NCBI GenBank assembly: GCA_008632985.1
Contig: QPGO01000130.1
Span: forward strand, 124,001-188,000
DNA from: Psammoneis japonica
Lineage: Eukaryota
Direction of reading: 5' to 3'
Length of the DNA: 64,000 nt
Shown here: one piece after another, positions 113 through 55,329 of the stretch
Position numbering within the stretch: position 1 is the stretch's first letter
Layout: the number at the start of each line of letters is the position of its first letter
The notes under the pieces: model-generated
Told to the model about the DNA's origin: nothing
Databases searched by the model: none
The model's input: the letters and a program-made list of their open reading frames with translations, nothing else
Program-made: the position numbers and the translations under genes

Positions 113-997
113 GGCACTGCACATGGTTTACATCTTACATGGTTGTTGTTGCTGATATGAATTTTTATTGGTTAGTGTCACCAAGTGTGTGCTGGCTCAT
201 AAAAAAAACACCCACCAGCCAAACAAGAGTGTGGTGGGGGGACAGGCAACCAACTCTGTGGGGGGGCATGCCAAGGGCACTTTTCAGATGACAAGGGTGT
301 GCCAGCAGGACAGCGCATGAGCCAGAAAGTTTGAAAATTTGACAAAGAGTCTCAAATGACAACAATGGCAGCAAAGGAGATTCAACAATGTGAGGAAAAA
401 GCTTGGTGGGAGAAAAAAAAGTGGTGGCTGGTGCAGCGTCGCACAGCCAACGCTCAAATGATGACTTTGACTCTAGCCTCAGTCTCTGACTTCTTGGCAC
501 CTCTCTTTTCCCAGCTGGCCCACCACTGTGAGCTTGTGTTGCACTGACATGTGAGACCAACGCACATCTGCCAGAGAGTGTCCTCCAAGACTCTCTTGGA
601 CTTGCTTCGTTGGCGAGAAAGTTGCGCGCGGCACCATGTTGTCAAGGAAACAAAAAGTGTGCAGACAGCCTGGGGGCACTGGCTGCAGGTGCTCCTGTGG
701 AGCTGCTGATGAGAAAACTCAAATCTCAAAGCCAGCTCAATGATGTGGACAACAGACATTTTGTCAAGCCCCAGCTGTTGTGTGTGGTCACCAGCTGGCC
801 CTGCCCCAGCAGTGCCACAGCCCAAATGTGCTGCTGGCACCGTGCCTTGTTGTTTTGTTTGGGTTGTTGCTCACTTTTCCTGCAACACACATTTTAGTCA
901 ACTCCAGGGGGGGGGATGCTGTGTTTGCCATCAGAGGGCATGACACCAAGGCATGACACACTGACATCATCCCTGGGTGTGGCAAACAAGTCACTGC

Positions 998-1376
998 TGC
1001 AACATGCGTTGTCATGTGCGCATTGTGTGTGTGTGTCCACACATCAAATAAAAGCACATTTCAATCGCACGTCAATCGTGGGTTCGTACGAAGTGCAGAT
1101 CAGTCACACAGAAGTGATCGGATGTCGAGAATCGCAAATGCGATCGTACGATGATGTTGACATCTTGTGTGTCAATGTCAATCGCACCCGGACAATCTGT
1201 CATCACGATCATATTCTCCGAAAGGCCTTTTGTCTGTGGGAGCAGTGCAAAAGGTTTAGGCTGTTGAGAACCCGTTCGGAGAAACCCAAAATGATTGCGT
1301 GGAAATAATTCTTGTAATTTTCACCTTTTGAACTTCGTTCTACTTTCGTTTGCACTCGTTCTTCGAGCATGGTGCA
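998..1376 (+). repeat. 5' LTR
   Basis: TGCAACATGCG...GAGCATGGTGCA, colinear with 5796-6174. Confidence 0.93.
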
Positions 1377-1412
1377 TTGTGTGTGCACACCACAGAAGGC
1401 AATGAGTTCAAG

Positions 1413-2567
1413 ATGAAGCTTTCACCTCATGTGGCCAACGCCAAAACTTCGTTGAGGCAGGAGAAAATCGTCCCTCAACCGCTGGAATCGAACTCCGAGC
1501 CGAAGAGCCTCAAACCGAGCCAGTGCCTCAAGATGGAGCAACGTTTTCATCCCGAGAAGAAGGGTGGCCACACCCACACCATCAATGTTGAGCACTGCAA
1601 GAAACAAGGTGTCCCCAAGCTCATCGAATTTCTCAAGAGCTACGATCAACTTCCAGTGGGCCAGAATGTCAGGAAGCAATCTGATGAGTTTCGTCTCATG
1701 CGCATGTTGCTCCAAGGAGACGCTCTACGTGCTTTCGAGAATGCGGCAGCAAACCTTGAAGACGAATCTGCGGAAGGAAGCTTCGAGAAATGCCTGCAAC
1801 ATCTCACGAGGCATGTGTTTCCCAAGAACGCACTTTCGGTGCAGAAACGTTATTTGCGTCGTGATCTCAAGAAGCCGGAGTCCATGAAAGTACGCGAAAT
1901 TGCTGCTTGGGTCCAGGAAGTCAACGAAGACCTCAAGTTCTATCCTCCCTTTGAGAAGGAACAGAAGATCGAGGACGACGAGCTCAAGGACATCCTCTTC
2001 AACCTTGCACCTCGAAAGTGGCAGCGTCAGTCGACCGTCCAGGGTTTCGAAATTTTGAAACACACCCATGACGAGTTGGTTGAGTTCTTGGAGCGCCTGG
2101 AGGTCGCAGAAGACACATTTGATGGCATTCATGCCAAGGCTGATGGCAGTGGCGGCACTGCATCAAAAGCCAAGAGTGGTTCCCAACGTGGTTCCAAAAA
2201 TGGTCACCAACATGGCACCGAAAAATCTCAGTCCGAGAAGTGGTGCATTTTGTGCGAGAAATCCACTCACAACACGGACAAGTGCTGGTCGATCAAAAGA
2301 CTTGCGAAAGAACGCCGTGGGAACCATGAACCCGACCCGAAACGGCGCCGTTCAAATGGCAATCACACGTGGTCTCGTCGCGATAACGACAACGCCGCTC
2401 GCAAAGAAGAGTTGAATGCCATGGCGATCCAAGCAGTTCAAAAAATGCTCAAAGCGAGTTCTTCGAACAATGATGAAAAACACAAGAGCAAAGATTGTGA
2501 TTCTGACACCCTTGACGAGGAAAATTGTCAGTTTGAAAAAATGACGCGCAGTGACTCTGAGGAATGA
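1413..2567 (+). CDS. gag: Gag of the Gypsy element
   Basis: Long ORF (first ATG at 1413) with the CCHC zinc knuckle CILCEKSTHNTDKC, directly after the 5' LTR. Confidence 0.85.
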   Translation: MKLSPHVANAKTSLRQEKIVPQPLESNSEPKSLKPSQCLKMEQRFHPEKKGGHTHTINVEHCKKQGVPKLIEFLKSYDQLPVGQNVRKQSDEFRLMRMLLQGDALRAFENAAANLEDESAEGSFEKCLQHLTRHVFPKNALSVQKRYLRRDLKKPESMKVREIAAWVQEVNEDLKFYPPFEKEQKIEDDELKDILFNLAPRKWQRQSTVQGFEILKHTHDELVEFLERLEVAEDTFDGIHAKADGSGGTASKAKSGSQRGSKNGHQHGTEKSQSEKWCILCEKSTHNTDKCWSIKRLAKERRGNHEPDPKRRRSNGNHTWSRRDNDNAARKEELNAMAIQAVQKMLKASSSNNDEKHKSKDCDSDTLDEENCQFEKMTRSDSEE

Positions 2568-5500
2568 CTTGCACTGCAAGAGGAGTCTTGCGCTCTGCTG
2601 GACATTAGGAAGCCCAGAAAAAGGGCCAAAGTAATTCACACTAGTCCAGCAGTCGTCGCCTGTATGAGTGCTTCATTGGGCAAGGCGAAAAATGAGCCTC
2701 TGCGCGTTCTCCTCGATGGCGGAACATCGTCAACCACAATTTTGCGCAAATTCACGCGGAAACTCAGAACAAAAGCATCCGCCACCAAACTCTGGGAAAC
2801 CAAAGGAGGGCTCTTCATGACTGACAGTCGATGTAAGATCCAATTCTCCTTGCCCAAATTTGACAAACACAAGATGATTGAAACAACGGCATGTGTTGAC
2901 AACTCCCCTTCTTCTTTGAGTCGTCATGACATGATCATGGGACGCGACTTAATGTCAAGTCTTGGGACAACATTGGACTTCTCGAATGAAGAGATTAAAT
3001 GGGAAGATGCAACTGCTCCTGTGAAGAATGTTGACACACTCTTCGATGCCAATGTTTTTAAGTTGATTGCCGATCACATTGAGGAATCTCATGCAGTGAT
3101 TGGTCTTAATGACAGGGTCAATCGGATCCTTGACTCAGACCATCACGCTGCAAACCTCAACAATGTGACCGCAGCAGCCACTCATCTAACTCCTGAAGAG
3201 CAGAAGCAGCTGAATTTCCTCTTAAAAAGATTTGAAAACCTTTTCGATGGTTCTCTGGGCAAATGGACCGGGAAACCGGTGGATTTAAAGTTGAAATCGG
3301 GCGTGAGTCCGCATCATGCCAAACCATTTCCCGCACCACAAGCCTTGGAGGCGACTGCTCGTAAGGAGGTTGAAAGACCATGCAAGTTGAAAGTCTTAAG
3401 AAAAATGAATTGTTCTGAATGGGCGGCTCCAACCTTCATTCAACCCAAGAAAAATGGTAGAGTTCGGCTCTCACCCGACTTTCGTGAGCCAAACAAGAGG
3501 TTAATTCGCACTCCGTTCCCTCTGCCCAACATTCAGGATGTGCTGCAGAAGCTCAAAGGCTTCATGCATGCAACGTCCCTAGATTTAAACATGGGACACT
3601 GTCATGTCGAATTGACGCCGCGTGCACGTCGCTTGTGCACGATCGTCATGCCTTGGGGCAAATGTGAGTGCTGTAGACTCCCGATGGGAATCTGTGGAGC
3701 TCCAGACATTTTCCAAGAGCACATGAGTGAGCTCATGGCAGGTCTGGAGTTCGTCAGAACTTGCATTGACGACACATTGTGTCTCACAAAAGGTGATTTT
3801 CAAGACCACCTCAAGAAGCTTGAAACGGTGTTCTTGCGCCTGGAACAAGCCGGATTGAAGGTCAACGCCGAGAAGTCCTTTTTCGCTAAACCCGAAGTAG
3901 ACCATCTAGGCTTTCATGTCACCCGCAAGGGCATCAGTCCGATTCCAAAAAAAAGTAGAAGCGATTCACGCGATCGCAACTCCTAAAACTCGCAAGGAAT
4001 TGCGACGCTTTGTCGGTGTGATCAACTGCTGTCGAGACATGTGGCCTCGACGATCTCATGTTTTAGCTCCTTTAGCCAAACTCACTTCTACCCAAGTAAA
4101 GTGGCAATGGACCGAAACAGAACAAAAAGCCTTCGAAAATGTGAAGCGCATCATCTCCAAAGACACACTGTCATCATGCCCGAATTTTAACATGCCCTTT
4201 GAGATGTGTGCCGATGCCAGCAATTCTCAATTGGGGGGCGGTTGTTGCTCAGAAAAACCGACCAATTGCCTTCTACAGCCACAAGCTGAATGGAGCGCAA
4301 ACGCATTGTGCTGCAACAGAAAAAGAACTGTTGTCCACAGTGGAGACGTTAAAAGAGTTCCGCAATGTGCTGTTTGGCCAACAGACAAACATGCACACGG
4401 ATCACAAAAATCTCACACACAAAAATTTCACAACGGACAGAGTCATGCGTTGGCGTCTAATGACAGAAGAACACAGTCCCAAAACAATGTACCTTGAGGG
4501 CAAGGCAAACATTGTCGCAGATGCGATCAGCCGACTTACCATGAAGAAAATAGAACCTGTGGAAACCCTCAGCACAGAAGAGCCAGCTGAAAAGGTCCCA
4601 CCAAAATCCTGCGACAATGTCTTTCCGTTAAATTACAAAGTTCTTGATCACGAACAAAAACGGGACAAAGACATTCTCTCCCAATTGTCAAATGAGACGT
4701 TTCACACGAAGACTTTTCGTGGAGGCGAGCGAGACCGGTTGCTCACATGTCACAAGGACAAAATTGTCGTCCCGAGGACGTTACAAAAGGCAGTGACAGA
4801 TTGGCATCATACGCACCTTCTTCACCCTGGCATAAATCGAACAGAAGAAACAATCTCACAACACCTGTGGTGGTCCACCTTGCGTGAAGACATACGAAAA
4901 TACGTGTCGAGATGTGAGACGTGCCAAAAATTCAAAAAGAAACACAAGAAATGTGGACATTTACCTCCCAAGCGCGCAGAATCCGTGCCATGGGAACGAC
5001 CATGTGTGGACCTCATTGGGCCATACAAAATACGTCGTAAGGGAAAGAAAAAAACCCCAGTCCTGAAATGTTTGACTATGATCGATCCAGCAACTGGATG
5101 GTTTGAAGTTGTGGAAATCCCAAACAAGGAGTCCACAACTGCAGCTGGACTGCTAGAATGAACATGGTCAAGTGGACATCCTTGGCCATCGTCAATTACA
5201 TGTGACCGTGGAAGTGAGTTCATCGGACACCAATTTAGAGAAATGGTGCAAGATGATTGTGGCATTAAAGTCAAGCCTGTGGCCACACGAAATCCACAAG
5301 CAAACGCAATTGTTGAACGCGCACATCAAGCACTGGGGAACATGCTCCGCACATTTGATTTGCAACATGCACCTCTAGACACTGAGGATCCTTTCGCTGG
5401 AATGCTGTCAGCGGTGGCGTTTGCGGCACGTTCTGCGTGTCATCCACTGCGCAAGCTGCGCCAGGACAATCAGTCTTCAACAGAGACATGACATTTGACG

Positions 5501-5769
5501 TCCAACATGTCGCAGACTGGAAATTAATCCAGCAGTGAAAACAAGAAATCATAAATAAAAATGACGCTCGAGAGAATGCTCGACGTGCTCCTTGCACGTG
5601 CAGAGTGGGAGAAAAGATGCCACTCGAGAAAGACTCGCAAAAATTAGAACAGCCCTGTGTTGGACCGCATGCAATGACAACGGCACATGCCAATGGCACA
5701 GCACAGATCAAACGCGGTAACGTCATTGACATTGTCAATGTTCGTTGAACAATGCCGTTTGACGACTGA
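2568..5769 (+). pseudogene. pol: Pol (protease, RT, RNase H, integrase), disrupted
   Basis: LLDGGTS protease motif. RT motifs WAAPTFIQPKK, SLDLNMGHCH, RLPMG and TCIDD (canonical YxDD). RNase H CADAS and EKELLS. Integrase HHTHLLHPG/CETC, VDLIGP and NPQANAIVER. Frameshifts near 3955 and 4237; internal TGA stops near 5159 and 5536. Confidence 0.93.
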
Positions 5770-5795
5770 CTCTAATGTGCAATTAGGGAGGCGAA

Positions 5796-6174
5796 TGCAA
5801 CATGCGTTGTCATGTGCGTGTTGTGCGCGCATGTCTGCACATTAAATGAAAGTGTGTTTCAATCGTGCGTCAATCGTGGGTTCGTACGAAGTACAGATCA
5901 GTCACACAGAAGTGATCGGATGTCGAGAATCGCAAATGCGATCGTACGATGATGTTGACATCTTATGTGTCAACATCAATCGCATCCGGACAATCTGTCA
6001 TCACGATCATGTTCTCCGAAAGGCCTTTTGTCTGCAGGAGCAGTGCAAAAGGTTTAGGCTGTTGAGAACCCGTTCGGAGAAACCCAAAATGATTGCGTGG
6101 AAATAATTCTTATAATTTTCACCTTTTGAACTTCGTTCTACTTTCGTTTACACTCGTTCTTCGAGCACAGTGCA
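5796..6174 (+). repeat. 3' LTR
   Basis: Colinear with 998-1376 and followed by the CTGC duplication. Confidence 0.93.
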
Positions 6175-6424
6175 CTGCTGCCCCACCGCAGCGCAGCGAG
6201 CGCGAGCGCACCGAAGGGAGGAGGGGGGACGGACAGTCCCGAATTTTGGGCGCGCCAAAAAATCAAAGGTGCGCCACTCCCTAGCGTTGAAAAGGTAACC
6301 AGGCTCTGACATTTTTGTAGAATCAAAGAGACGCACGTCATGATGAAACGCTTGGGAGTGGCATGCGAAGATCGCAGAATTTTTTGTCATCCACAAACCC
6401 AAAACACAAAAAAGAGCGTCCACC

Positions 6425-19298: not shown

Positions 19299-22200
19299 AT
19301 GGTAAGCTAAGGAAGAAACAGTCTCGTAAATCTAGAGAATCTCAAAAGGATGTGCAGCGCATGCACTTATTTTACATAGCACTGCCCTTTCATTCCATCT
19401 TGCCTGTTCTCTTGTGTCCTGGAACTTCGATCTCAGTGCTTCTGCCGAGTCCAGTGTGCATGTGGCTCCTTCCTGCAAAATGCATGGGGAGGCGAGTGAG
19501 AGGAACGGATCTGGTGTGTCCTTTGTGCAGCAGTTCAGTTTCGCATGCAGTCTCGCGTGCTGTTGGTGTCGCGCGCACGTTCCCGCTTTGCAGTTTTGCT
19601 CTCGAGCCTCATCATGGCTCGCAAGAACAACAACGGTGCCGACCATCAACGACTTTCATTTGTCAGCACCTGCAATGGATCCTAACCCTTGAACTGCCTT
19701 GCCTTGCCTGCTGCTTAAGATGGCAGCAAGGTGCACTGTTTCTTTCCAGCGATCATGTCTCGTTGGGCTCACGGCGCGTTGATGAGAGGGTGCTTGCAGC
19801 CCTCTCTGCAAGACCCACAGAGTTCAAAGCCTTGAGTGCTTTTTCTCCCTGCTCTTGCTCCTTGGAGTAATTGGGAAACTGACACATGTGGCCTCTGCAA
19901 CAAGCATGTCATCCTTTGCCAAACCAACAAGGGGGCGGGGTGGCCCCAAAGCAAAACTATCAAGCAACATCCAAGTTCTTGAGCTTCCCAGGATTTGGAG
20001 CAATTCTGTGTGGCAAGTGCAACATGCTCTGCAATGAGATGTGATGGGACAATCACTTTGTCACTGGGTTGTTTCTTCAGTGCAGAGTGCAACAGCAGAG
20101 CTGCCACACATGCTGAAAGCCATGGCCTTGTTGCCCGCCAAACACCACGTTGCTTGGAAAGCACAACATGGAGTTGATTGAGCACTTTCACAAGGGTGCC
20201 CAAGACGACAAACAATGTGCAACACATGTGGTGAGATTTGCAAACATTGCATGTGTTTGTGAAAGATTGGCGTGGACATGAGAGCAATGTGGGCGGGCTG
20301 CTGCATCAAATCTTGGTGGGGGCACAAGCTTTGGGAGAGTGGCCTCAATGTCCTTGCAGTTGATGAATTGTGGCAACAGCTCCCTTTCCCCTCCACAATG
20401 AAGGGAAGACTCTGCAAATTCCTTGACAAAAAACAGCCAGAGTCCATCTGGTGCAGGTTGTTGATCCTTGCACAGCTTGTCTGACTGGCCCACTGCCAGG
20501 AAGCAGTTGCAAGCAATGTGAGGCGCTGCCAGCATCCCCTGCCATTGACAATGACAAGGTTTGAACAGGATTTTTGTAGTGCATGATTTGTCACATGCTG
20601 TGTTTGAGCTTTGCCAGTGACTTTTGTTGGTTTTTGCACTTTCAAAGGTTGCTCTGGCACACCTGTTGGCATTGACTTTACTTTGCTCACTCATGAAGAG
20701 CTCTGAGAGCATCATCTTGGTCCTGCATGGCATCACTTTCCAATGCCACCAGTTGCTCTGTCTTTGCCCCATGAGTCACATCACAATGCTGGTCACTTGA
20801 TCTGCACTCTGGTGGACCCATCCCATGTCATTGGCCTGGCCATCTGTGCCCCAACAGGAGGCCCATCTCCACCATGCTGTTGGCCGCTGTGTCCTCGCAC
20901 CCTCCACTGAAAATGGTGACAAACTCTTTGAGAATGGCCGCCATGCCTCCTGCTGCATTGATGTTCCCTCTCAAGGACTGTGACAGCCTTGTCCAGGTGC
21001 ACATCTTCCAAGGCATGGATGTGCAACCCACCCCTTGTGTTGCACTCTCAAGCCTCTGTCTGACCAACTTGTTTGGGGCATGCTGCCCAAGTCTTCGAAG
21101 GCTGTCATTCTTCTTGAGCCCAAAAGCCCCCAGCTGCTGGCTTCACTGGTCAGCCTCTGTCACCCTCCATGACCTCTGTCTGGGGGGTGATGGCAATGTC
21201 ACAGGTCCCAACACTCCACTTTGGTTCCTGGACCTCCTGTGGCTGACCTTGCTGCTCCCGCACCAACACTCTGGCATGACAACTTGCATCTCACACCTCC
21301 TGAGATGGGGGGTCTCCTTTGCCCACTGTCAAATCCTGCCATGGCATGCATTGTTCACTTTGCCAGAGGAGAGATCAAGATGTCCAAGCAGCTTCATCAT
21401 GTTGAGTCACATGAAGGTCAATCAAAGACTTGTGATCCAAGTTGGGAAGACTGAGCTGTGGTGTCAAGAATGGGGAGATCACAGCCAAGCTGTGCTCCTT
21501 GCTGCAAGCACATCTTTGGCAATCTCTGGGGAGATGCAGCAGACCTTGCAATGGAGTTGATGGAAAAGTGCTCCATGGCCCACCTTTTCAACAAGTTCCC
21601 AGTTTGTTGTTCTGTCAAGATTGCCACCTGTGCTTCCAAGTCTGTTCCTGTCAGTGCTCCAAGTTGTCAGCATGATGTCACCTTTTGTGCAAGCACTGCT
21701 CTGCCCTTTCATCCCATCATCTCTGCTCTTTTGTGCCCTGGAACTTCTGACTCAAGTGCTTTTGCTGAGTCTGATGTTGGTCTGTTCCTGTTGCTCCCTC
21801 TCAAAGGCAATGAGGAGGGGCAGAATTTGAGCAGGATCCAGTTGTTCTCAATTTGTTGCATTCTGCATTCACTTTGTTGCACACAGGTTTGTTGCACACA
21901 GGCATTTGTGCTCTTGGCTCCATGCATTGTTGTGTGATTGTGATGCAGTTTTGCTCTTGAGCCACAAAGCTCACAAAAACAATGACAGCAACACCAATTT
22001 TATGATGCCCGTCTTTTGGCTCCTGCAATGGCCTGCCTCTGCATGGAGACTCCAAGAAGTCATTGACATTTTTTTCATCAGAGAAATTGCAACTTGGCCT
22101 CAATGTTCCTCCAATGCAGCAGCATGCTGGAGGAGGAGCAAAGACACTTGGCCACATGAGGGAGGTTGCACATCTTCCACAGCAGCAAGGCATCAGCCAG

Positions 22201-25200
22201 CCCCTCATCCACCATGCCAACTGTGACAAGGAGAGTGGTGCCAAACCACTGTAGTGTGGCAACAAGTGAGGAATGAAAATGCCATGTCCCTGCCACATCC
22301 ACAGGAAACTTGCCATTTCACAAGCACTCCACTGACCTGCAAGTGTTGCAGTGGTTTCACAAACACTTTTTCTGGAGACATGCAAGCTGACTCATTGAAG
22401 TTGATGCTTGGTTGTTTTCCTTGTTGAGCGTGTGTGCAGAGGGGTGAAAAACATGTTGAGCAGTCTTGAGAATGCTGCTGGGAGATGTTCCAAGATCCAT
22501 GCTGATCACCATTCATTGTTGCAGTGGCAAGCGGGTGGTTGTTTCTATCTTGCTGGTGACAGAGCATGGCTTCTTGCATGCTGGTGGGGGCAAAGAAGCA
22601 GGCTGTGCTGTAGCAGTCATTGTCTGTGACAGAGCTGGATGTTCCGTTGACCACACCATGCCTGTCAGTGCCCTGACAATGAGCCCAACCCACGGTGGGG
22701 GTGGGAGAAAGTGCAAATGTGAAGGACACAACCCCAATGTGTTGGTTTGTTGGGCACCAGGTGTCAACAACTCAGATTTTTGCAGAGCATGGAATGGCTT
22801 TTTTGTTGACAAACAAAGGAAGCTTAAAGCAGAGAAGTCCCATTCTCAAAGTTCTTAAAAGCTGGCCAAATGGGTTGGTGATGCAACAAGTGGTAAAAGG
22901 GAGCCTTCAGTTGTCTCAAATTGCTCCCAATCACTCTGAAAGTTCTGTTTGAACTCTTTTCTCACATCATCTCAAACCCCCTTCATGCCAAGGATTGAAC
23001 ATTTTCTGTCATGTTCCTTGTGGCTCCAAATCAATCACATGTTGCTCTTTGCTCATTCCTCACCAACACAACATTTTGTCACAGCCATCCCCATTGGACT
23101 GTTGAAGCATGCACAAACCACACATTGGATCAACCATTTCTGACATTTTCTCCAATTCTGTCACATCTGTGGTGTTGCCACAGACCACCCACTTTTTGGC
23201 AAGTGCGTGGGGAGCCAGCACTTCTTGCGGGCCTTGTTCTCCAGTGCACAGATCTGTCAGTGGTTGCTTCTGGACCATTTCCCCCCTCCTTTTGTCATTT
23301 GACATTTGTGGCATGCTGTCTGTCAACAAAGTGCTTCAGCACACACTGATTGCCATTCCTTCTGATTGCACAACACACACAACCATGATGCTTGTGACCC
23401 AGTTCCTCTGCACATGCAGAAATTGAGGGGTCATGCTTCTTGAGCCATTGACAGCCACCCAAAGCATCATTTTTCTTCACAACATGGAGAAAATCACATT
23501 TGTGAGCAGGTCCACCATGACACATTGTTCTTGTTGTGCTTGCAGTGTGGAGACAGCAGGGCACAATCAGCTGGCATCCATGGCACATTGTCCTTGTTTT
23601 GCTTGGAGCCTGGGGAGAGCAGGGCAGATGGGGTTGATGCAAGGTTCACTTGATTGGTGGTGCTGTTCCTGCAAGCACTGCAATGCTCTCTCACACACTC
23701 TTTAAAATCTTTTCAAAAGCACTCAGTGTTTTCCTTGATGTTGATTTTGTGGACATGGAGTCAGACAACAGTCTTTGTCTTGGGGTTGTGAAACAGGGTG
23801 ATTGGCAGATCTGTGCCCTGAGTGCTTGCAGTTGGCATGCATGCCAGGCAGGGCCAATGGCAGCAACTGCAGATGGAGCATGCTGCTCAGATGAAGCCCT
23901 GCTTGGTGGTGCAAGTGCTCTTCAATGCCTCTTGAAGAAAAGGCATGTCTGTCCAGCGCAGTTCAACAACATGTGGTCTGGCCATGCTTGTGAAGCCATT
24001 GAGCTCCATTCTGTTGTAGACTTGGTCATCAAGGTTGTTCACAAAGGTGCACTCTCTGCAGCACAGAAAGACAGTCAGAGAATGCTGCAATGACAACATT
24101 GCAGTTGTCATGATGCCAGATGACTGCAAATGACATGATGGTGCCATGCAGATGAGTGGCAGCATGGGCACACTTTGGCAAGAGCCTTGCGCAGATCATC
24201 TAGAAAGTTTGGGGCAACAGCCTTGAATGCTGGGTTCAGAATGAATTTGCAGCCAGTGTTCACAATGAGCCCATCAATCTGAGCACCTTTGAAGGTGGTC
24301 AGCAAAATGGCTTCTGCAGGGTTGGTGAAATCCATGCTCTGCAGGTCAAATGGTCAGATGACAGCATCAGCACAATCTGTTGTGCAAATGAGTTGTCATG
24401 ATCTTCCACAGTGAAATCCTCAACACAATTGCTTGGTGCTTCAAAAGTGCATGCATTGACTGGATTGTCAGAAATGTCATTTTTTCTGTCCCAAACTGCA
24501 GAAATTCCGTGCACTTGATGCACGATGCTGGACTTGTGGTGGTCATGAACAAGACAGACATCAATGGCTGAACGTGCACATTCACATCACATTTTATGTG
24601 TTCATGTGTGTGTGTTTGAGAGTGATGCACATGCTGATGATCATGGACAGAATTTCACGCCGGCCGGCTGGGACAGAAAAATGACAGGACAGAAAACTGG
24701 TTGGATGGGATGGAAAAATAAATGGGAGGGCTTGATTGTTGGCAGCACTGACAAATGGTTGATCAATCATGGGGAGGTGCATGAAGAATGAAATGGCAGG
24801 GTTGGTGACTGACTTGTCAAGACCAGATGAGCCAACGCTCCCTTTCATCTTGATGCACATCACTTCACTTTGGCAACTGCTGCCAACGGGTCCATCTTCA
24901 AAAGGTTCTTTGATGACACCAGCAGCTTGGTGAGTGCAGTTGTTGAGAACAGTGTGACAGATGTTGTGATGTGACATGATGACAAAATTGGAAGGGTCAG
25001 GCAGCAGTGACTTGCCTGCATGCTTGTGCTTTGCAACCGATGTGTCAACAAGGCCAGCAGAGTTGTTGCACAGCATGGCCAGGCAATCTGACTTGGTGAG
25101 GCTGCATGAGTTGGGTTTGGTGCTCTTGTTGAACTGGAAAGCCAGGCATTGCTCAGCATTGCCAGTGTCAGGAGAAATGGCTGGGCACATGAACACAAAG

Positions 25201-26899
25201 CTGTGTCCTTGAGCACACAACACATCAGCGTGCTTCTTTGGGATGAAGGTCTTGGACAGAGGGCCAGCCAGGCATTTGTTTGACTGGTGCAAGATCTTGG
25301 GATTCTTTTGACAGCAGATCCACCAAGTCTCCATGTTCAACATGTGATGCATTTGTGACAGAGAAGGCTGAAGAAACACTGAAAAGCTGAGCACATGGCA
25401 AAAGCAAGTCTGCTGCTGTGGTGAGATGAAACAGTGGTGAGAAGAAGCAACCAAGAGTGGTTGGCAAGTGTCAACAGTCAATGGTGTCGGGATGACAATG
25501 TGCACAATGAATGTGATGAGCTCTCCACTTTTGCAACTTCCAGCCAGCACCCCTCTCTCTTTGCATGACACTGGCCAGTGCTTCTGGCATTGCCCCTGAT
25601 TGGGGGTGGGATTTTGCACTCCACTCAAATGAGTCTAGCTGGTCCAGTCTTCCAGTGGATGAAATGAGTTTAGAGCAGTGCAAAAAACAAGAACAATCAA
25701 CTCTTGTCATCACTGTGGCCACATTTGAGCCATGTGACCAGAACAAAGTGACACAGAGAGCAACCTCACAATGTCCCTTCAATTGGTGGCTGGCAGAGAT
25801 GATGCCCCTCCTTTTTGTTCACAAATTCATCAGGTGTGACGTGAGCATGAACAACATGACACAAAGGGACCTTCACAGCACCCAACTTTTCCAACAACAA
25901 GTCCAAGAATGCATCCCCATGTGAGTCATGACCCCAAGGTTTGAACTTTGCCAAATTGCCAGCTGTTGCAGTTGTGCTGTCCCTTTTTTTCTTAACATGC
26001 TCAAACAGACTAGCAACTGCAAAGCACCTGCAGTTGCATCAGCAGCTGCCAACTCACAACCATGTTGCTGCCAATCATGAATTCACCATGCCTGCACTTG
26101 ACATTGGCACAAGCTGCCAAATGCTTGACCATCTCCATGTTGTCTGTGTAAGATTTCACAACTCTGGCATCCTCAAGCATTTAAAAGCCTTCATTCAAAG
26201 GAATGCAAGTGTGCCAAACTGCCAAACTCACACCACATGATCCCTGCAAAACACATGTCAACATCAGGTGGCTCAGCTGCTGTTTGTGCTGCAACAAGCT
26301 TGTGTTCCATTCATGCAAGGGCAGCAGCCAGCATGTGTCCTGCATGCTCCTGCACTGTTCCACATGGAAAGGATGCTGCAAGAACAGGGTTGCAAGCCAA
26401 CTCACACTGTGAGCTGATTGGACTCTGTGTGGACATGGTCAGATGCACCAGAGCTGTGCATCCATTTTCATGCAGAGAGAACAATCATTTGCACATGAAT
26501 GCATGTGCCAGAGGCTGCATGAGCCCATGCCACACATGACATTTTCAGTGTTTGCATTTCTGTCACCCACTGCCCATGACCTTGCTCTTGTGCTCTCTCG
26601 ACATCGTTCACTGGCATTTCATGGATGGGCCACTTTTCCCCAACCTTGCCATCACAGCATGTGTCTTGGCTCTGACAAAGCAAGCAAATCTGGCTGGACT
26701 CTTGCCTTCCAGCAGATAAAAAAGCCCAGAACAGTGCAAAGCACAACCAATGGTTGTTGTCATGATTGCCAAATCTGAGCTGTGGTCAGATCAGAGACAC
26801 GGAGAAAAACCTCATGACATCTCTTTGCATTGCTGGACACAGGACAGGCTGCCTCTAAATTGCAGTTCTGAAGCAAGGTGCAGTTTGTTTCTTTTGGCT

Positions 26900-27495
26900 G
26901 CAAGGTGGTTTACAAGCCAGAAATCTGTGTCCCATTTGCCTCATTCATTGGCCAGTGCAACAATTTTTGTGCGACAAAGCAAGGAGAGGAACAAATGATG
27001 TGCCCTTGATTCTTGACAATTCATTGTACACTGAGCTTTTGGAATGTGCAAAAGCAAACACATTCATGTTGCTCTGTCAAAAGAGGAAACTTGTGCACTG
27101 TTCTTTGGCTCATTTGGGTTGTCCAACATGGCCAAATGACTTGTCATCTGCCCAGGGCCTGTGGCATGAGTGCTGTTGCAGTTCTCTGCTCAATTGTTTC
27201 TTTTGGCTGTGAGGTGGTTTACAAGCCAGAGACCTGTGCCTCATTTGCCTCATTCATTGGCCAGTGACACAATTTTTGCCTGACAACCCAAGGAGGAGCA
27301 AATGATGTGCCCTTGCTTCTTGACAATCTGCTGCACACCAAGCTTCTGGAAGAATGTAAAAAAGCAAACACATTTGTGTTGTTCTGTCAAAAGAGGAAAC
27401 TTGTGAGCTGTTCTTTGGCTCATTTGGGTTGTCCAATGCAATCAAATGACTTGCTGGCCACCCAGGGCCTGCTGCATGAGTGGCATTGCAGTGAG
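26900..27495 (+). repeat. Diverged tandem duplication, unit about 310 bp
   Basis: AGGTGGTTTACAAGCCAGA...CCCAGGGCCTG occurs near 26903 and again near 27212. Confidence 0.85.
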
Positions 27496-28624
27496 CTCTC
27501 CACTCGGCGGATCTCATTCTTGCACTCAATGCCAGTTAGATTGCCATGCTGTGCTGTTGCTGCATGTCACACAGCCTTCAGACAGACAGAATGCCATGAA
27601 GCACGCACCACACGCATTTGCAATTTCAGTGTTTGTTGGATCGAGACTGGCTGGATTGTGGATTGATCATGGATTGTGGCAAAAATGAGCACACCACGGC
27701 TTTTTGCAATCTCTTCTGAAAATCACAATGGGAAAAGTCAAAAAAGTGCACCTCGTGAGTGGCTGCATCAAGTGCACTTGGTGCACTCATGCACAATTCT
27801 GCACAACTCACACACGGCGTGCAAACCAACAGATTTGCATGAATTTGCCCTGTGAACCTGTGAACGGTTTTTGATGTTGGGTCAAGTTTAGTTGCATGCA
27901 ATGTGCAGGGATTTGTGCCAAGTTCTAGCAGGACTCAGTGTTGGACAACAACAACAATTGCCTCTGCACAGGGCCTCAGTGCAGTTTCACACAAAGTGTG
28001 CTTGATTTGATCAATCGCCACCTGCACAGAAATGTGCAGAACATGCACCAACAACCTTCCCACTCTGGTTTTTTGGGTACTTGGTTGCAATCTAAACAGT
28101 GCCAAAGACCAAAGCAATTGACCACAAAAGCTTTTACATCATGCAGCATTGCAAAACACACCATGGAATTTTGGGTGAAAAACAGGGTTGAAATTGATGG
28201 CTCTGCTGGTGTTTTTGATTGTAAAGCAAAGTGCAGTTACGTGGAAATGTGCAGAAAATGTGCTGACCTCCTAAATCTTCACTTTTTGGCTGCTCTGGTT
28301 GCAATCAAAATAGCACCAAAAGACCAAAGCCATTGATGCAAAACACTTTTACGGAAAATGGTAAATTGCATGACAGAACTTTGGGAGACAAAATGGTTGT
28401 AATTGATGGCCATGATTGAACTGATCAAATGGAACACAAAGTGCACTTAAATTGCCAAAAAAGTGCACTTGCAACTGAAAAGTGCACTTACAACTGAAAT
28501 TGCACACAGAAAGCTGTGCAGAGATCTGGCACACAAAAATGGGCACACTTGAGTGCACTTGTTTGTCTTTCCTCCATTGCAACTCTTGGCATTGACACTG
28601 AATCACAACTGCTGTTTCTTCATC

Positions 28625-29990
28625 ATGCCTGCCTGCATTGACAACAATGAGAAGAGGAAAAAGGCGGCATTGATGTTGGCAACAAAGAAAAAGTCGCTGT
28701 GGACACAAGAACTGCAATGGATCTGATGCATGCAAAGAGCTGATTGCAGGTCTCAAGCTCTTGTTGACTGTCACTTCCTCTCATGATGCCCCTGATCCAT
28801 TGACTCCATGTCAACCAATCAGCTCTGCAGATTGGACTGCAACCAATCTGCCATCCAAACATCAGATTCCTCTAGATCTCATGCTTTCATCAACCACCAC
28901 GTCCTCCACCGGCAGCTGTGCTCCTGCTCCAATGACTCCAGATCAGCCAATCAATGAAAAGGCAACAAAAGAACAACGTGCTAAATTGGCACGTGAATTT
29001 GTTGTAAAAAAAGAACTGGGCATCTCTTGCAATGGGCTGGATGATGCTGGCATGTTGCGGGCCAATCGTTTGATGTCAAAGGATTGTTCTTGGAGTCCCT
29101 GCCAGGATGAAGTGGATGGTCATGGGGAGACCACCTTTTGAGAGCAATTTGAGCTGCGCTGTGAAGAATGCCCTGATTGGGAAGATCTCTCTCAGTTCTT
29201 CTTTTAAGATGATGAGGATGGAATTGATGACTGTCTCATCATTCTCCAGCTGAGAGCAGGCTTCTGCTTTGTGCATGCAGTTGCAGTCTGTCAGCATCAT
29301 TTGCAATGCAAGCAAAATGCCAGTCAAGGAAAGAACCATGAAATGCTTGACCTTTTGTGGTGTGTTCATGAATGTTTCTCCAGAAAGAAGCTCAAGAAGT
29401 TCCTGCAGAATGGAGGTGGCAGATCAGCCACTGAGTTTCTTTGTGAGATCATGGGTGACAGCCTTGATGCCATTGCGGCTGACATGATTGCAATTCCAAT
29501 GAAATCAGGGTGGGAGCTCAGCTTCAATCTAACCATGGAGACAATTTGCAGCATTTTTGAGCATCAACGTGAACCAGCTCTTGTGTTGGGATTCAAAATT
29601 GAAGAAGACTTCAAGACGTCAAACAAATTCATGTGCAATGATGAGGTGGATGAGAATGCCTTTCTTGATTGTGGCAAAAAACAGCAAGGACGAGGGTGTT
29701 GTTGTGCTTCATTCGATGGTCCTGCCGGGGCTGCACAAGGATGAGAAAGCTGGCAAGGTTTGGTTTTTGCTGCAGAACTTTTGGGCAACAAAGCATTTGA
29801 CAGTTGTTTCTGGGGAGCATTTGGCCTCCTGTCATGCAAAGATTGCATTTTTGTCACTGGGATGCAATGTTTCTCTGGCAGAGGAAATGGAGGTAATTGA
29901 CGCTCACTGCTCTGAGACTGAAACCACAATGGAAGAGGAGCACAAACCCTTTCCAGATGAGACAGATGTGTGGCCAGCACCAGATTGGGT
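28625..29990 (+). pseudogene. Decayed papain-fold (peptidase C1-like) gene
   Basis: Fragments in changing frames: QLRAGFCFVHA (Gln/Cys region) and LHSMVLPGLHKD...WFLLQNFW (His/Asn region). Confidence 0.55.
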
Positions 29991-32900
29991 TGCAAGGGGA
30001 TCACAGTGTTTTCTGTCATGCTTGCTTTTTGTTGTGCCACTTCAATTGGTTTTGTCATGTCCAGTTGTCTGGTGCTGTTCATGAGGAGACCTGCCAGCAT
30101 TCGTGCATCTTCAAGCTTTTAGACTCCAGTGCTGGTGACAGCAAAATGCACATGCATCTAAAAATGATTTGCAGGTGCCATCCCGGTGACATGTGAGCAA
30201 AATTCAAGTGCCCATTTGAGACAGTCACACCCTTGCTGCCTGATGATTTGTTGGTTTGTGTCTCCCCCCCCCCTCCCACCCAGCAAGGACAACAAACAAC
30301 CATTCAAACCAAGGTTGCAGAACAAACATTCTTCCCAGATCACACACCACACATGGCAAGCCACATGAGAACTCATCAGACAATCTCATCAAATTTTCCC
30401 CATCTTCTGCAGTTTTGTGTGTGCAAACATCACATTTCTTCCATTGCACACATGGCTTTCATGCATTTGCCACAGGTTGGAAACTGGTGCATCTTGCAGG
30501 CATGTCTGGGCCACTCCTTCCTCATGAAGAAACTCAACAAGTGCCAGAAAAAATCATCCATCCCAGGGTCCTCCCCCACCCCACCCCCACAATTTCCTTC
30601 CACTGCACACATTTTTGGGGTTCCCCTGAGCTGCAATGGGCTGCAACAAATGAAAGAAAAAAGAAGGCCAATGAGCAGTGGCTCACACATGTCAACACTT
30701 CAAAGTGGCCCTGCCCAGGCTAGGACCGCAACCACAATGCAAGCCACTTTGAAAGTTGCTTTTGCCATTCCAGGGTCAACAAACATGGCCAAATGAAAAT
30801 GTGAAACGAGCCTTGCCTCTTGTTGAGCACAGCTCTGCACAAGAGCCATGTCCACTGCCGCCGTCAGAGGAGGAGCCCACAATTCCAGCCTGGACAACAG
30901 GAAACTCCAAAGGGGTGAATGTGGTGGAGAGTGCCACCCTGCAATGTCATGCCTCTTCTGGAGCCAATCTGCCGGGGAGAACAGGGTCTCCTCAGGCTTG
31001 CCAGAGCAGCTCCTCACCCGCTCTCCTGCACAGGAGCACTGGGGGTCTCTCTGCCCCCCCCCCCCCAAGGTGCAGGGGTGTGAAGGAGAGCAAGCATTTG
31101 CCCTCCATCACACCCTCTGTCAACACGCGTTCAACCTGGTAAATGGCAAGAAGCGTTCTGATGAGGAAACTGTTCTGTGCTGTGCAGCCAGCAGAGATGT
31201 CTTCAAAGAATCCTTCCGAATTCTTTGAAATTTCGGCATATGTCCGGTCACGTAGGTAGCTCCGAGTTTATGAAAAAAAGAAGAGGAAAAGGAGGAGGGA
31301 GGCGAGGAGAGGAGAGATGCACATTCTCCGTAGTGCTTGCAATGCGTTTAGCACGCACGACGCCCAGACGATTAGCGCTTCCGACGTGCGTAGCTAGTTA
31401 GCGCAGTCGCAGCTATCTACTCTACTCTAGCAAACACTGTAAAGAACAGCGACATGCCATGATCTATCTAAATACATTATCTACTGCTTCATTGCTCACG
31501 GAAAATTTACACCCCCACTGCTGACGCTACCGTTGAGATGCAACCGCACGATTAGCCAAAACTCCATCAAGTTCCTCTCTAGACCCGACTAGATTCGGAA
31601 AGTTCCAGAAACAGATTTCCCCAAAACAACAAATAGTATCAAAAGACTTATATCATGTAGAACATTGGCCCAGAAAGCCATTGTAAGCTTTAGCAGTCAA
31701 AGATATTCACACTGGAAAATGACAGGCAAAATGAAAATGTGACTGGAACAACGTACACAATAACAATCCATTGGGATCACACATCACAGTATACTCATTA
31801 GGGCACCTTTTAGAGGGAGAGCTGGGTCTCCTTCCCAATTTTTATGCTCCCAAGTACCACCAGCGGTTCGTGGGATCCTTGCATCCAAGAGGAGGCGATG
31901 AGCCCGCCAACACAAGCCTCAACCTCCCCATTTTACCCATTGCAAAGCCTGGACTAGTCGGCACACTACCAAGATCTCCCCACATAACCTGGATAATATT
32001 GTGTCTTAGATGATGAAGAGAATCGACTGTAGAATAGGAAAAAAGGCTCATCATAGACCAGACACCTGCACGCATGAACGAGACGCACAAAAAAAAGGCT
32101 CGTGAGGTATGCAAGTTTCGTCAAAACGAGTCCAACACTCAAACAATTAAACACACTCGTAGGATTACCTTTTTTGGACTATGATAAGACTGTCTGACAA
32201 TTTCCAACGTCGTAAGTGTCCTCCAGGCTCCATCGCGTCGTTTTGTTCCAACGGCATGCACTTTCCAAAAATTGTGACGGCCGAAACACGACATGCCGTG
32301 ATTATGTGCCGACCAAGCCCCCAAGAAGGATATCAAGCGCGTCACAAATCCACATTAATATACATAATAGGTACACCAAAGGATGTAGAGTGGGATGAAG
32401 CATAAAGATCCCAAACGGATGCGCTCTGGCGGCGCCAACGACTTGAAAAACATTCCAACATAATAGACACCATAATCGACCGTACGAGACGATCCATCCA
32501 CTTTTCAAGCTGTAACAAAAAACAACAATGGTCTTTAGCAAATATGAAAACGAAATAAAACGAGAAAATATAAAAAAACTTACCTCGGCGGCGTTGTCGA
32601 CCAGTCAGATGTTACCCGTACCGTGCCGTATTTGAGCTACGAGTCGAGGCACGCAACCGTTTATAGCATGTGCAGCAACCAAAGCACCCCAGGAGACCAA
32701 ACCAATGCATCAACCTCTTTATAACAACAATAGAAAGAGATCAACCACGGAAAATACGTCTACCCCACGATGCATGCCATGGCGAGATGCATCAAAGTGC
32801 AATGTGCATGGCCGTTTCTTACGGTGCGGTATGCCAAATCGAGAGCGTTTGAGTGGAATGAAGAAAATGAAGAGGATTCCTCCTCAGGCGTCCTTATCAA

Positions 32901-34953: not shown

Positions 34954-36300
34954 TGGCGGTGAAGAAGGCAGGGCCTGTGGTGCGGACAGATGGGTGGGGA
35001 GAGGAGGCAATCGAAGGGTGGCAGAAAGAAAGGATTTGCAGGCAGAAAGATGGTTGGAGAGAGCTAATCCAACGTTGAGGCCAGGAGTTGGGCAGCCCAG
35101 ATTGGCAGGTGAAGCAAAAGCATGAGGAGCTGAAACGGTTGGGGGACGGTTGTTTCCAGGCTGCACTTGCATGGCAAAGCAGATTGCTGGGGGTGAGGAG
35201 CAACGATTGGAAAGAGGCAGAGCAGGAGACTTGGGTGGGAGTTGGAGAAATTGGCAGGAGAATTCCAAGGTGGTTTTGGCAGAGAAGCAGCATGGGAGTG
35301 GCCGCAAAGGAAGGTGTGGAAGTGGCGCCCAATGCCACACAGGTCACCAAGGGTGAGTGGAGGGAGGAAAATGCCAGCTTGGTTGATGGAAGAGACAATG
35401 GAGGAGCCATGAAAGGAAGGAGTGTCACAACCAAGTGGCTTGGCTTGAGCACTGCTGAGGTGCGCCTTGGACAAGAGGTTGGCGGGGGGCGGGCAAACCA
35501 GGTGCAGGCCATGGGGGAGCTGGGGGCTCAGGTTCTGCGACACTCAACAGTGACAAAAGTGTGTGCAGACACTGGGGAGAGAGGTTGAGTCAGTGGCAAG
35601 TTGGGTGTCAACATCTGTGTGCTGTTTCAATGGGAAATCAGGGAGGAGGCCAATGTGCTTGAGGAAGACATGCTGTGCAGAGCAGCAGAGGCCAGGTGCC
35701 AAGGGTTTCAACAATGGCGCAGATGGCATTGTGCATTTGACTGGGAAAAGGGCCTTTGAGCATCTTGGAGCAGGGGGAAGCATGGTCACCGCAGAGGTCA
35801 AGGGTGCAGAAACCACCAGCAACCATGTGGACAGGACAGCTGGCAAAGATTGGGAGGGAAAACAAGGAGGCAGAGTTTGCAGTGTGGGAGGAAGAGGAGG
35901 AGGAGGGTGAAGTGAGCAGAAGAGAGGTGATTGGGTGGGTTTGAGGTGGAGAGGGAGTGCAAGCAAAGACTTGCAAGGGGGGAGAGAGGAAAGGGGGGGC
36001 ATGACAAAGGCTCAGGTTGCTCAGGAGGAGCAAGAAAGTCTCGTGTTGGTGGCAGTGTGGGGGACAGGGGTGCTGGGAGGGAGAAAAGGGTCAGGGCAAA
36101 ACGGCGCAAGATGTTGCAGAGGTGCAGGTGGAGCATGGGCCACACCACAAAAAGAGCACAGAGCAGAGCAGTTGGATGGAGGGTGGGGTGGCTGGAGGAG
36201 GGAGTTGTGGTTGTGGTTGATGCAGATGGTCTTTTGTGCCAAAGAGCTCCACCCATCAGTGTGGGAGGGTGTGCACAGTGTTGCACCCAAGAGGTGAAAG
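34954..36300 (-). mobile_element. Degenerate 3' part of a non-LTR retrotransposon with restriction-like endonuclease (CRE-like)
   Basis: C...LDLCGDHASPC...HNAI zinc-knuckle-like motif, GLLPDFPLKQHTDV (like RPAD) and [16 protein letters not shown] appear in the expected order. Heavily mutated. Confidence 0.5.
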
Positions 36301-37340
36301 TGATGATTGCATGGCAATTGAGTCACTCATTGTGGAAATCTTGCATGCAAAATGCCTTGTCATTGGTGCATGTGATGTGTGAATCAGCTCCACACCACAC
36401 TTTCATGCAACCATGACCATGGGCAATGAGCTTGCACTGCAGGCTCCAATTCTTGATGACTCCAACAGCCTTTTGAACAAAGTGTTCTTTCTGTCATTGC
36501 AAGGTTCTTGTTTGCAACAAGCGCTGAGACAACATGAGCTGTGCAAACATCACACATTTTCTTTGGGATTCCATCAAACTTTAATCAGATTCTGAAGTCA
36601 TTGTGTTCACATCTTTTTGCATTTTTTCTTTTTCAAAACATGCCACCCCTTTTGTCACTGCCTGTTGGACAGCAATCTTGATCACCCTGGGCAGGATTGC
36701 TCACATGGGTTGGCCAATCAGTTGTTTTCTCTTTCTAAAATTTGGAACTGATGCCCAGCTTGATGAAGTGAATCCTGGTTTTTGGGCAGGTGCAATTGGT
36801 GAATTCTTTTGTGACATGTTGCTGGATTGAACACCTGTCACAGCTGGAGTTCTCTTGTGTTGTCAATGCCATTCCTGGCCTTGTTTTGGACCAACAGGAG
36901 GTGCACTCATCTGCACTTTGGTGTTCAAGGCATCTGTCAACAAGCCTTGGTCAGGAAATGAGGAGTGGCACATTGAGGCACAGATTACATTGTTTTTGCA
37001 ACAGTCTTGTGCACAACATTGTGGACAGTGGTTGCATCAACTGCAATTGCTCTGGCTGTTTGAAGACTGGAGCATGTTTGAGGACAGTGCAAACCAGCCC
37101 AACAGGAGCACAGCAGCTTGCTTTGGCACTTTTCTGTGATGGCTGCAACTCCTGCAAAAAGGTTGGATCAAAACTCTTGTTTCTTTTTGTTCCCAACCAA
37201 GCATGCATTCAACCTCTGGCAAATGGCAAGAAGCACTCTGATGAGGAAATTGTTTGGTGCAGCACTGTGGCCTCAGCCACTGGAGCAGAGACATTTTCAA
37301 AGATTTCCAAATCTTTGAATTTTGTGGGGGCAGTGCACAA

Positions 37341-37523
37341 GCAACCATTTCCTGCACTTTTTGCTGTCCTCACAACCTGTGAGCACTGGGCCCCACAGTG
37401 GAACCCCATGTGAAAATGTGGCAAGCAAAGGGCAACCATTTCCTGCATTTTTTGCTGTTTTCACAATGTGTGAGCACTGGGCCCCACAGTGGAACCCCAT
37501 GTGAAAACATGGCAAGCAACGGG
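37341..37523 (+). repeat. Tandem repeat, 2 x 91 bp
   Basis: GCAACCATTTCCTGCA...GAGCACTGGGCCCCACAGTGGAACCCCATGTGAAAA...GGCAAGCAA at 37341 and 37432. Confidence 0.9.
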
Positions 37524-37599
37524 CTCACTGCCCTTTGGTCAATGACTCATCCATGTGGCCTCTAATTGAACCAAGAGTGACTGTTCTCAACAACACCAT

Positions 37600-55310: not shown

Positions 55311-55329
55311 TTCACCAAGCAACCACTCA

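Follow-up and report, generated by a model that had tools for sequence, protein, structure and literature searches.

The closest described counterpart of the locus considered here comes from the chlorarachniophyte Bigelowiella natans, where mutation-accumulation lines sequenced with Illumina technology were shown, in the main text of the preprint, to carry 231 of 302 nuclear mutations within two integrated viral regions (Mettrop et al., 2026; bioRxiv 10.64898/2026.01.13.699255). All but one of these mutations (230 of 231) are A->G or T->C changes, the GC-biased ones all fall on TpA, and the rate amounts to about 6e-7 per site per generation, with only some of the lines affected. TpA-depleted coding sequences of B. 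natans are enriched for reverse-transcriptase and DDE domains, and 124 clusters were reported in the genome of roughly 95 Mb (bioRxiv 10.64898/2026.01.13.699255). An ADAT2-like adenine deaminase acting on DNA is the enzyme that the authors put forward; their discussion states that ADARs prefer a 5' U, and the main text, which is the part of the preprint considered here, does not mention CpG, flanking context, retrotransposons by name or diatoms (bioRxiv 10.64898/2026.01.13.699255). Here we describe a Ty3/Gypsy retrotransposon flanked by two long terminal repeats (LTRs) that lies at positions 998-6174 of a 64-kb stretch of contig QPGO01000130.1; this whole stretch is called the window, and all positions are counted from its first base.

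The signature of the changes and their timing, taken together, make it likely that this element underwent near-exclusive mutation of TpA to TpG or CpA after its integration, a reading that we hold with good confidence. The starting point was an original prediction that, between positions 3250 and 4450, conserved tyrosines of the Gypsy Pol had been converted to Cys or His by loss of TA.

Structure of the element

The stretch 3250-4450 is part of a complete Ty3/Gypsy LTR retrotransposon of 5.2 kb (998-6174), which is composed of the following features:

994..997, no strand: target-site duplication CTGC, 5' copy; the same 4 bases abut both ends of the element
998..1376, + strand: 5' LTR of 379 bp with TG...CA termini; gap-free alignment to 5796-6174, with 351 of 379 positions identical
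1413..2567, + strand: gag open reading frame (ORF), still open; taken from the ORF list, the sequence and the dinucleotide table
2664..3959, + strand: pol piece in frame 3 with protease and reverse transcriptase (RT); RVT_1 at about 3444-3920 (Pfam, E=3.8e-15) and tblastn collinearity with the relative P0001
3250..4450, + strand: the stretch originally flagged, from the RT thumb to RNase H, assessed by counts in Tyr columns
3961..4245, + strand: pol piece in frame 1, linker between RT and RNase H (tblastn frames; RT_RNaseH_2)
4247..5425, + strand: pol piece in frame 2 with RNase H, the integrase H2C2 zinc domain (about 4769-4939) and the integrase core
5428..5760, + strand: pol piece in frame 1, C-terminal part of the integrase, with TGA at 5536 and 5746 in frame
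5796..6174, + strand: 3' LTR, with the purine-rich tract AGGGAGGCGAA just before it
6175..6178, no strand: target-site duplication CTGC, 3' copy, identical to the 5' copy

Along pol, the Pfam domains follow the order RVT_1, RT_RNaseH (and RT_RNaseH_2), Integrase_H2C2 and a weak rve, with E values of 3e-18 for RT_RNaseH and 1.8e-17 for Integrase_H2C2 in the frame-2 piece; the position of the integrase after the RT identifies the element as Ty3/Gypsy. The pol region is collinear with residues 3-1009 of P0001, a relative of 1013 aa, and a tblastn search of the window with the same protein gave matches confined to 998-6174, with no second Gypsy copy. The gag product contains a CX2CX4HX4C zinc knuckle near 2240-2290, read directly from the sequence of the ORF at 1350-2567; a Pfam search of gag returned no match, and the observed/expected ratio (o/e) of TA over this region (1340-2600) is 0.09.

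The copy is not intact. Its pol carries three frameshifts (near 3960 at a run of eight A, near 4246 at a run of G, and near 5426) and three in-frame TGA codons (5159, 5536 and 5746), of which that at 5536 occupies a column with Arg in 82% of the relatives (CGA->TGA, a CpG change). Furthermore, the DSG motif of the protease reads DGG and YIDD of the RT reads CIDD.

Loss of tyrosines from Pol

For comparison with relatives, Pol (2664-5760) was translated in four pieces, each in its own reading frame and joined to the next through X, and aligned to the first 80 of 120 listed intact relatives (47-57% identity), a column being counted as conserved for Tyr when at least 60% of the 80 have this residue. 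At the 28 columns so defined, the window retains Y at 4 and has H at 10, C at 11 and F at 3, whereas of the 569 columns conserved for other residues, 424 are unchanged (Fisher p=1.4e-10). The same 28 columns in the 80 relatives hold 1994 Y, 37 H and 31 C, which fixes the direction of change as loss of TA, as had been argued from conservation alone. Nor do the relatives, as a rule, carry Cys or His naturally at these positions: the highest count in any of them is 3 of 28, against 21 of 28 in the window. The depletion is also apparent in the overall composition, with 0.5% Y, 3.0% C and 4.0% H in the window Pol as compared with means of 3.8%, 1.3% and 2.8% in the 120 listed relatives, and the 440-aa ORF at 2664-3986 has no Tyr at all. 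The five Tyr codons that survive are all TAC, with no TAT among them.

Within 3250-4450, conserved Tyr is replaced by His at 3312, 3567, 3597, 3903 and 4418 and by Cys at 3600, 3663, 3669, 3762, 4027, 4030, 4177 and 4307. The motif conversions initially proposed are largely borne out by these sites. YxDD reads CIDD through TGC at codon 3762 (Y in 80 of 80 relatives); MGYYH reads MGHCH through CAC at 3597 (Y in 78 of 80) and TGT at 3600 (Y in 80 of 80); KYEY reads KCEC through TGT at 3663 (Y in 68 of 80) and TGC at 3669 (Y in 60 of 80); NYYRD reads NCCRD through TGC at 4027 and TGT at 4030 (Y in 79 of 80 each); and PYHA reads PHHA through CAT at 3312 (Y in 77 of 80). The YTD/YAD motif is a different matter: CAD at 4207 faces H in 66 relatives and Y in 13, and HTD at 4394 faces Y in 35, F in 24 and H in 20, so that four of the six motif examples are secure and two, at 4207 and 4394, are insecure. 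The five closest relatives, 61-69% identical over the stretch, have KPYHA, MGYYH, WGKYEY (KYKY in one) and YIDD or YLDD where the window has SPHHA, MGHCH, WGKCEC and CIDD; all five have Tyr at 3312, 3597, 3600, 3663, 3669 and 3762, NCCRD lying outside that alignment.

The effect extends to other codons that contain TA. The conserved columns show 168 deviations; TA->TG/CA alone suffices to produce 51 of them and CG->TG/CA alone another 11. The 51 include the predicted changes of Ile (ATA) to Met, Thr or Val and of Leu (CTA, TTA) to Pro or Ser, together with Val (GTA) to Ala and with A->G changes at the first codon position, always after T (Thr to Ala, Ser to Gly, Asn to Asp, Lys to Glu, Arg to Gly), one of which turns the DSG of the protease into DGG. 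In the protein collection and metagenome searched, the closest relative reached 61% identity along the full ORF, or 64% along 60% of it; since this leaves no closer relative for an alignment at the codon level, the changes were polarised at the protein level.

Two parts of the original prediction need to be qualified. The idea that the element is inactivated by loss of Tyr codons rather than by stops holds insofar as the frames are kept open at TA, but the copy also has the three frameshifts and three TGA codons noted above. Likewise, the effect is present at 3250-4450 as proposed, but it reaches from one end of the element to the other (TA o/e 0.23) and takes in a large part of the window.

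Two near-identical Gypsy copies, L001 and L002, were encountered on contigs of a sediment metagenome from another, AT-rich organism and are 57-59% identical to the window Pol. They differ from each other at YIDD/HIDD, KPYHA/KPCHA and KPYPLP/KPCPLP, and 35 of their 77 single-site transitions are of the TA type (about 28% expected, by a hand estimate), a weak, unpolarised enrichment that is left out of the evidence here.

The LTR pair as a clock

When an LTR retrotransposon integrates, its two LTRs have the same sequence. Those of the present element differ in their gap-free 379-bp alignment at 28 bases, which represent 19 events: nine CA-versus-TG doublets, seven differences of TA versus TG or CA, two of CG versus TG, and one other transition. 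Thus, 16 of the 19 are of the TA type, and pyrimidine-purine (YpR) steps account for 27 of the 28 mismatched bases, the remaining one falling among the 171 positions outside such steps. Each CA/TG doublet is best explained by an ancestral TA that was changed on opposite strands in the two LTRs; CG ancestors are unlikely because CG has survived well in both LTRs (24 and 26 occurrences). TA is kept in both LTRs at 6 sites, and the counts of 9, 7 and 6 imply, by a hand estimate, that about 84% of the TpA sites open to change were altered in either LTR, a minority of sites being refractory. Since the LTRs were identical at integration and yet diverge at TpA, the changes took place after integration, on DNA, and at a rate at TpA that is hundreds of times that elsewhere.

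Strand use and sequence context

In agreement with the prediction that both outcomes of a TpA transition should occur, on either strand, the 53 events inferred in Pol comprise 31 TG and 22 CA. Their order along the sequence shows 23 runs where 26.7 are expected (z=-1.07), and among the 26 pairs of neighbours no more than 30 bp apart, 12 combine one TG with one CA. The succession of TG and CA steps is likewise what independent sites would produce, both in the element and in four depleted blocks elsewhere in the window (see below), with z between -2.3 and +1.5 and a variance ratio of 0.8-1.1. Each TpA is therefore mutated independently, on either strand. The LTR alignment had given an impression of strand-coordinated runs of CA-type and TG-type changes, which the runs tests rejected.

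The flanking bases have a graded influence. RTAY contexts (R, purine; Y, pyrimidine) are depleted most and YTAR contexts (TTAA, CTAG, CTAA/TTAG) least, in the element as well as in the blocks. Relative to genic DNA, the densities in the element are 0.08 for ATAT, 0.23 for ATAC/GTAT and 0.43 for GTAC, as compared with 2.9 for TTAA, 0.63 for CTAG and 0.8 for CTAA; in the blocks the corresponding values are 0, 0.006 and 0.02 for the RTAY contexts and 0.53, 0.29 and 0.27 for the YTAR contexts. The blocks have lost CpG in addition, most strongly at TCG/CGA: TCGA, CCGA/TCGG, ACGA/TCGT and GCGA/TCGC persist at 0.04-0.07 of their genic density, other CpG contexts at 0.12-0.19.

TpA- and CpG-depleted blocks around the element

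TA loss is a regional process and not a peculiarity of one Gypsy element. Over the whole window the TA o/e is 0.25 and the CG o/e 0.52, the window including genic stretches (TA about 0.57, CG about 1.0), the element (TA 0.23, CG 0.90), and four blocks together with the interval 250-997, in which TA o/e is 0.00-0.18, CG o/e 0.00-0.23 and CA/TG o/e 1.7-2.2 in sequence that is otherwise complex. The depleted blocks occupy about half of the window. The segments are:

250..997, no strand: older flank depleted in TpA and CpG, adjoining the element; over 1-900, TA o/e 0.21 and CG o/e 0.29
20000..31000, no strand: block 1, TpA and CpG lost; TA o/e 0.00-0.18, CG o/e 0.03-0.19, CA/TG 1.7-2.0
35500..42750, no strand: block 2, in the same state as block 1 (dinucleotide table, state map)
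42750..43750, no strand: repeat-related zone of 1 kb, TpA lost and CpG kept; TA counts of 0, 0, 1 and 1 and CG counts of 5, 9, 6 and 20 per 250 bp
48500..55750, no strand: block 3, in the same state as blocks 1 and 2 (dinucleotide table, state map)
58250..64000, no strand: block 4, in the same state as blocks 1-3; holds a 1.39-kb tandem duplication, 59175-60568 / 60565-61956

The edges of the blocks are sharp, with a TA o/e of 0.08 in the first 250 bp outside the called edges and about 0.5 beyond. A map of states at 250-bp resolution had suggested margins depleted in TA only at all seven block edges; this was rejected, as pooled counts end the depletion within about 250 bp, which also implies that there is no general leakage into the flanks. 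Besides the element, true TA-only zones are restricted to 42750-43750 and 35000-35500. The former shares one part, at 77% identity, with 57845-57987 on the margin of block 4; its ORF at 42962-43639 gave no domain match and encodes 13 Cys and 7 His but not a single Tyr.

The direction of change in the blocks can be read from a repeat that has a genic copy at 45560-45980 and two copies in block 4. Wherever the genic copy has TA (10 steps) or CG (17 steps), the block copies without exception have CA or TG; the opposite polarity is limited to a single step in each comparison (1 of 42 and 1 of 40). In the window, no segment was found in which CpG is lost and TpA kept; given that the Gypsy copy and the zone at 42750-43750 have lost TpA and kept CpG, the absence of the converse indicates that TpA was lost first.

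As to the content of the blocks, 107 ORFs reach 115 aa or more, and 4 of them gave domain matches, namely a GUN4-like domain twice, a C-terminal exon of UQ_con and a weak Mrr_cat_2. The two degenerate GUN4-like copies (59108-59605 and 60423-60995, both on the - strand; Pfam E=3.8e-8 and 3.3e-5) lie inside the 1.39-kb tandem duplication of block 4 and are almost devoid of TA and CG. Compared with 40 relatives, hallmark sites are altered, the consensus LWV.YSNG.FGFSVQK reading LCLHFSNCCFGFLVHG. It seems that a host-type gene fragment was hypermutated too, besides mobile DNA. The C-terminal part of UQ_con (34765-35343, - strand; E=1.4e-8, profile positions 86-138) lies in the TA-poor margin beside block 2, and the rest of that ORF is proline-rich and unmatched, being either a last exon or a gene remnant. 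At the other end of the window, positions 1-114 resemble (75%) the interval 9432-9539, which is the 5' end of a cold-shock-domain gene (9274-9537, - strand), and look like a small duplicated gene fragment by the old depleted flank.

The host genes of the window are long uninterrupted ORFs. For the UCH (ubiquitin hydrolase) gene, the named matches among the 120 listed all come from diatoms (Attheya, Nitzschia and a Bacillariaceae metagenome-assembled genome; 39-46% identity), and the protein collection contained no protein identical to it.

Proposed mechanism and alternatives

The observations are best accommodated if a complete Gypsy element was mutated in the chromosome, after its insertion and almost solely at TpA, each change of TpA to TpG or CpA being an A:T->G:C transition on one or the other strand. 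As TA->TG/CA cannot create a stop codon, the reading frames stay open, while the conversion of Tyr (TAY) to Cys or His, of Ile (ATA) to Met, Thr or Val and of Leu (YTA) to Pro or Ser destroys motifs of the protease, RT, RNase H and integrase. The process is confined to sharply bounded, repeat-like segments, and it may represent an enzyme-driven hypermutation of silenced repeats that resembles a genome defence, as in B. natans. The leading candidate for its chemistry is adenine deamination to hypoxanthine at TpA in DNA, an assignment that we make tentatively, its chances being a little below even. The later, TCG/CGA-preferring loss of CpG in the older blocks would most simply be due to deamination of 5-methylcytosine.

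Several points weigh against this account. Two of the three frameshifts of pol, at 3945-3960 (A8) and 4225-4250 (G run), are located at homopolymers and are either real indels or residual assembly errors; they may be a sign that the assembly was built from long reads and is not free of mistakes. The assembled 64-kb sequence is here taken on trust. Nothing in the window points to an enzyme, and the lack of strand runs is a poor fit to a processive single-strand deaminase, which counts against an APOBEC-like mode. Within Pol, 106 of the 168 deviations represent ordinary divergence at about 50% identity, and at 2892, 4207, 5593 and 3915 three conserved-His columns have Cys (CAY->TGY) and one conserved Trp has become His, swaps that need two steps (via TA or CG) or an unseen Tyr ancestor. 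Lastly, the view of the blocks as old transposons draws on few internal repeats, with domain matches in only 4 of the 107 ORFs.

The alternative that survives best accepts the signature and its timing but invokes another chemistry: in silenced chromatin, TpA, which is self-complementary, would carry a modified base on both strands, such as 5-hydroxymethyluracil, 5-formyluracil or N6-methyladenine, and would miscode more often without the involvement of a dedicated deaminase. Oxidised thymines can pair with G, and some protists carry oxidised thymines preferentially at TpA. The equal use of both strands and the independence of sites fit a symmetric mark that acts site by site, as in CpG decay; moreover, the blocks have lost only the self-complementary YpR steps TpA and CpG, and RTAY is itself palindromic. 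Such a passive route is harder to reconcile with the extreme contrast in rate, about 84% of susceptible TpA per LTR having changed as against one change in 171 non-YpR positions, or with the fact that the B. natans process is active in some lines only and thus looks regulated. We consider it less likely than not, and a little less likely than adenine deamination.

Alternatively, the element could be intact in reality, its modified TpA and CpG having been misread by a long-read base-caller. The two frameshifts at homopolymer runs resemble residual long-read errors, and the window proteins are absent from a large protein collection, which thus offers no independent copy of the sequence. Yet miscalls tied to the read strand predict like outcomes at neighbouring sites, whereas nearly half of the close pairs (12 of 26 within 30 bp) are opposite and TG and CA follow one another at random over 5-11 kb, and calls made independently would leave TA and CG behind, of which almost none remain (TA o/e 0.00-0.1). 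Furthermore, the Gypsy copy keeps its CpG (o/e 0.90), the dependence on context is graded, and the same signature was obtained from Illumina data in another alga. An artefact of assembly or base-calling is accordingly improbable.

Editing before integration, either of the RNA genome by an ADAR-like A-to-I activity or of the cDNA by a deaminase acting on a reverse-transcription intermediate, is more improbable still. In its favour, the element is a retroelement, and RNA editing enzymes are known to hyper-edit A to G with a preference for a 5' U. However, LTRs made from one template differ by about 25 independent TpA events (two for each of the nine doublets, and seven singles), a divergence that excludes such editing as the main cause; both strands are affected equally (31 TG, 22 CA), unlike in single-strand editing; and the signature also occurs in DNA other than retroelements, such as the repeat at 42750-43750, the GUN4-like duplicate and the blocks. 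Finally, the notion that Cys and His, or codon usage low in TA, are a natural trait of active members of this Gypsy lineage can be dismissed at the level of the 80 aligned and 120 listed relatives: the host genes of the window are themselves lowish in TA (o/e about 0.5-0.57) and individual Tyr columns show H or C in a few of the relatives, but Tyr is invariant at YxDD and 3600 (80 of 80) and nearly so at 4027 and 4030 (79 of 80), no relative exceeds 3 of 28 Cys or His where this copy has 21, and the copy has frameshifts, in-frame stops and LTRs that diverged at TpA after insertion.

Implications

TpA hypermutation of the chromosomal element, if it operates as proposed, has consequences beyond this locus. 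The preference for RTAY and the independent, symmetric behaviour of the strands constrain the enzyme, and the order of events is shown to be TpA first and CpG later. Long ORFs with Cys or His in place of Tyr will mislead gene callers and repeat annotation, and the transposable element content of such segments is underestimated, as 103 of the 107 long block ORFs have no domain match. A broader and doubtful extension would be that a diatom possesses a saturating two-stage eraser of the two self-complementary YpR steps in repeats, which removes first TpA (fast, through a mutator that acts on both strands, site by site, and prefers RTAY) and later CpG (with a preference for TCG), and that this represents an old defence widespread among the stramenopiles, alveolates and Rhizaria (SAR). 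If so, the eraser would silence transposons as well as duplicated host fragments (e.g., the GUN4-like copies) without ever making stops, possibly through one deaminase family acting on T-A and T-C, and TpA hypermutation would not be a chlorarachniophyte curiosity aimed at viruses but a process that runs opposite to fungal repeat-induced point mutation (RIP).

Comparison with known systems

In the literature searched, TpA hypermutation in diatoms is not described, and the part considered here of a study of diatoms (Maumus et al., 2009; PMC2806351) does not mention it. The signature has been described once before, the only match in that literature being B. natans (bioRxiv 10.64898/2026.01.13.699255, main text). 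As there, A->G and T->C changes occur only at TpA and give TpG or CpA according to the strand, and they do so locally, in a contrast of orders of magnitude to the rest of the genome that leaves segments poor in TpA and rich in CpA and TpG. The present locus shows the same confinement, the TA o/e falling from 0.57 in the genic core to 0.23 in the element and to 0.00-0.18 in the blocks. The differences are nonetheless considerable. B. natans is a chlorarachniophyte, whereas the present locus probably belongs to a diatom; the mutated DNA includes a complete LTR retrotransposon, which has an internal clock in its pair of LTRs; and the loss is near saturation over about half of 64 kb. The older blocks are depleted in CpG as well, a term that the main text of the preprint does not contain, and the preference for RTAY over YTAR and the independence of sites are likewise absent from that main text, although its supplements may hold data on flanks. 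In addition, mutation was seen de novo in B. natans, whereas here it is read from sequence alone. A second case, probably from a diatom, would show that the process is neither lineage-specific nor virus-specific.

With the decay of CpG through 5-methylcytosine, the blocks share the loss of CpG to TpG and CpA on both strands and site by site. That process leaves TpA alone, however, and as the Gypsy copy has an almost intact CpG content (o/e 0.90) and a TpA o/e of 0.23, the element was not killed by CpG decay. ADAR and APOBEC editing also inactivates retroelements by transitions of the deamination type, but acts before integration and on one strand, whereas these LTRs diverged after integration with equal use of the strands. 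The likeness to fungal RIP lies in the confinement to repeats and transposons, the restriction to transitions, the sharp bounds and the inactivation of elements. RIP, on the other hand, changes C to T, mostly at CpA, and thereby creates TpA and stop codons; instead of the expected enrichment of TpA with depletion of CpA and TpG, the locus shows TpA depleted and CpA and TpG enriched (o/e up to 2.1), in that TpA is destroyed by A:T->G:C changes that cannot create stops. RIP is triggered by the duplication of sequences; the window contains only a few pairs of repeats. A process aimed at TpA with this polarity would thus be the mirror image of the classical repeat-directed mutators, namely RIP, CpG decay and APOBEC.

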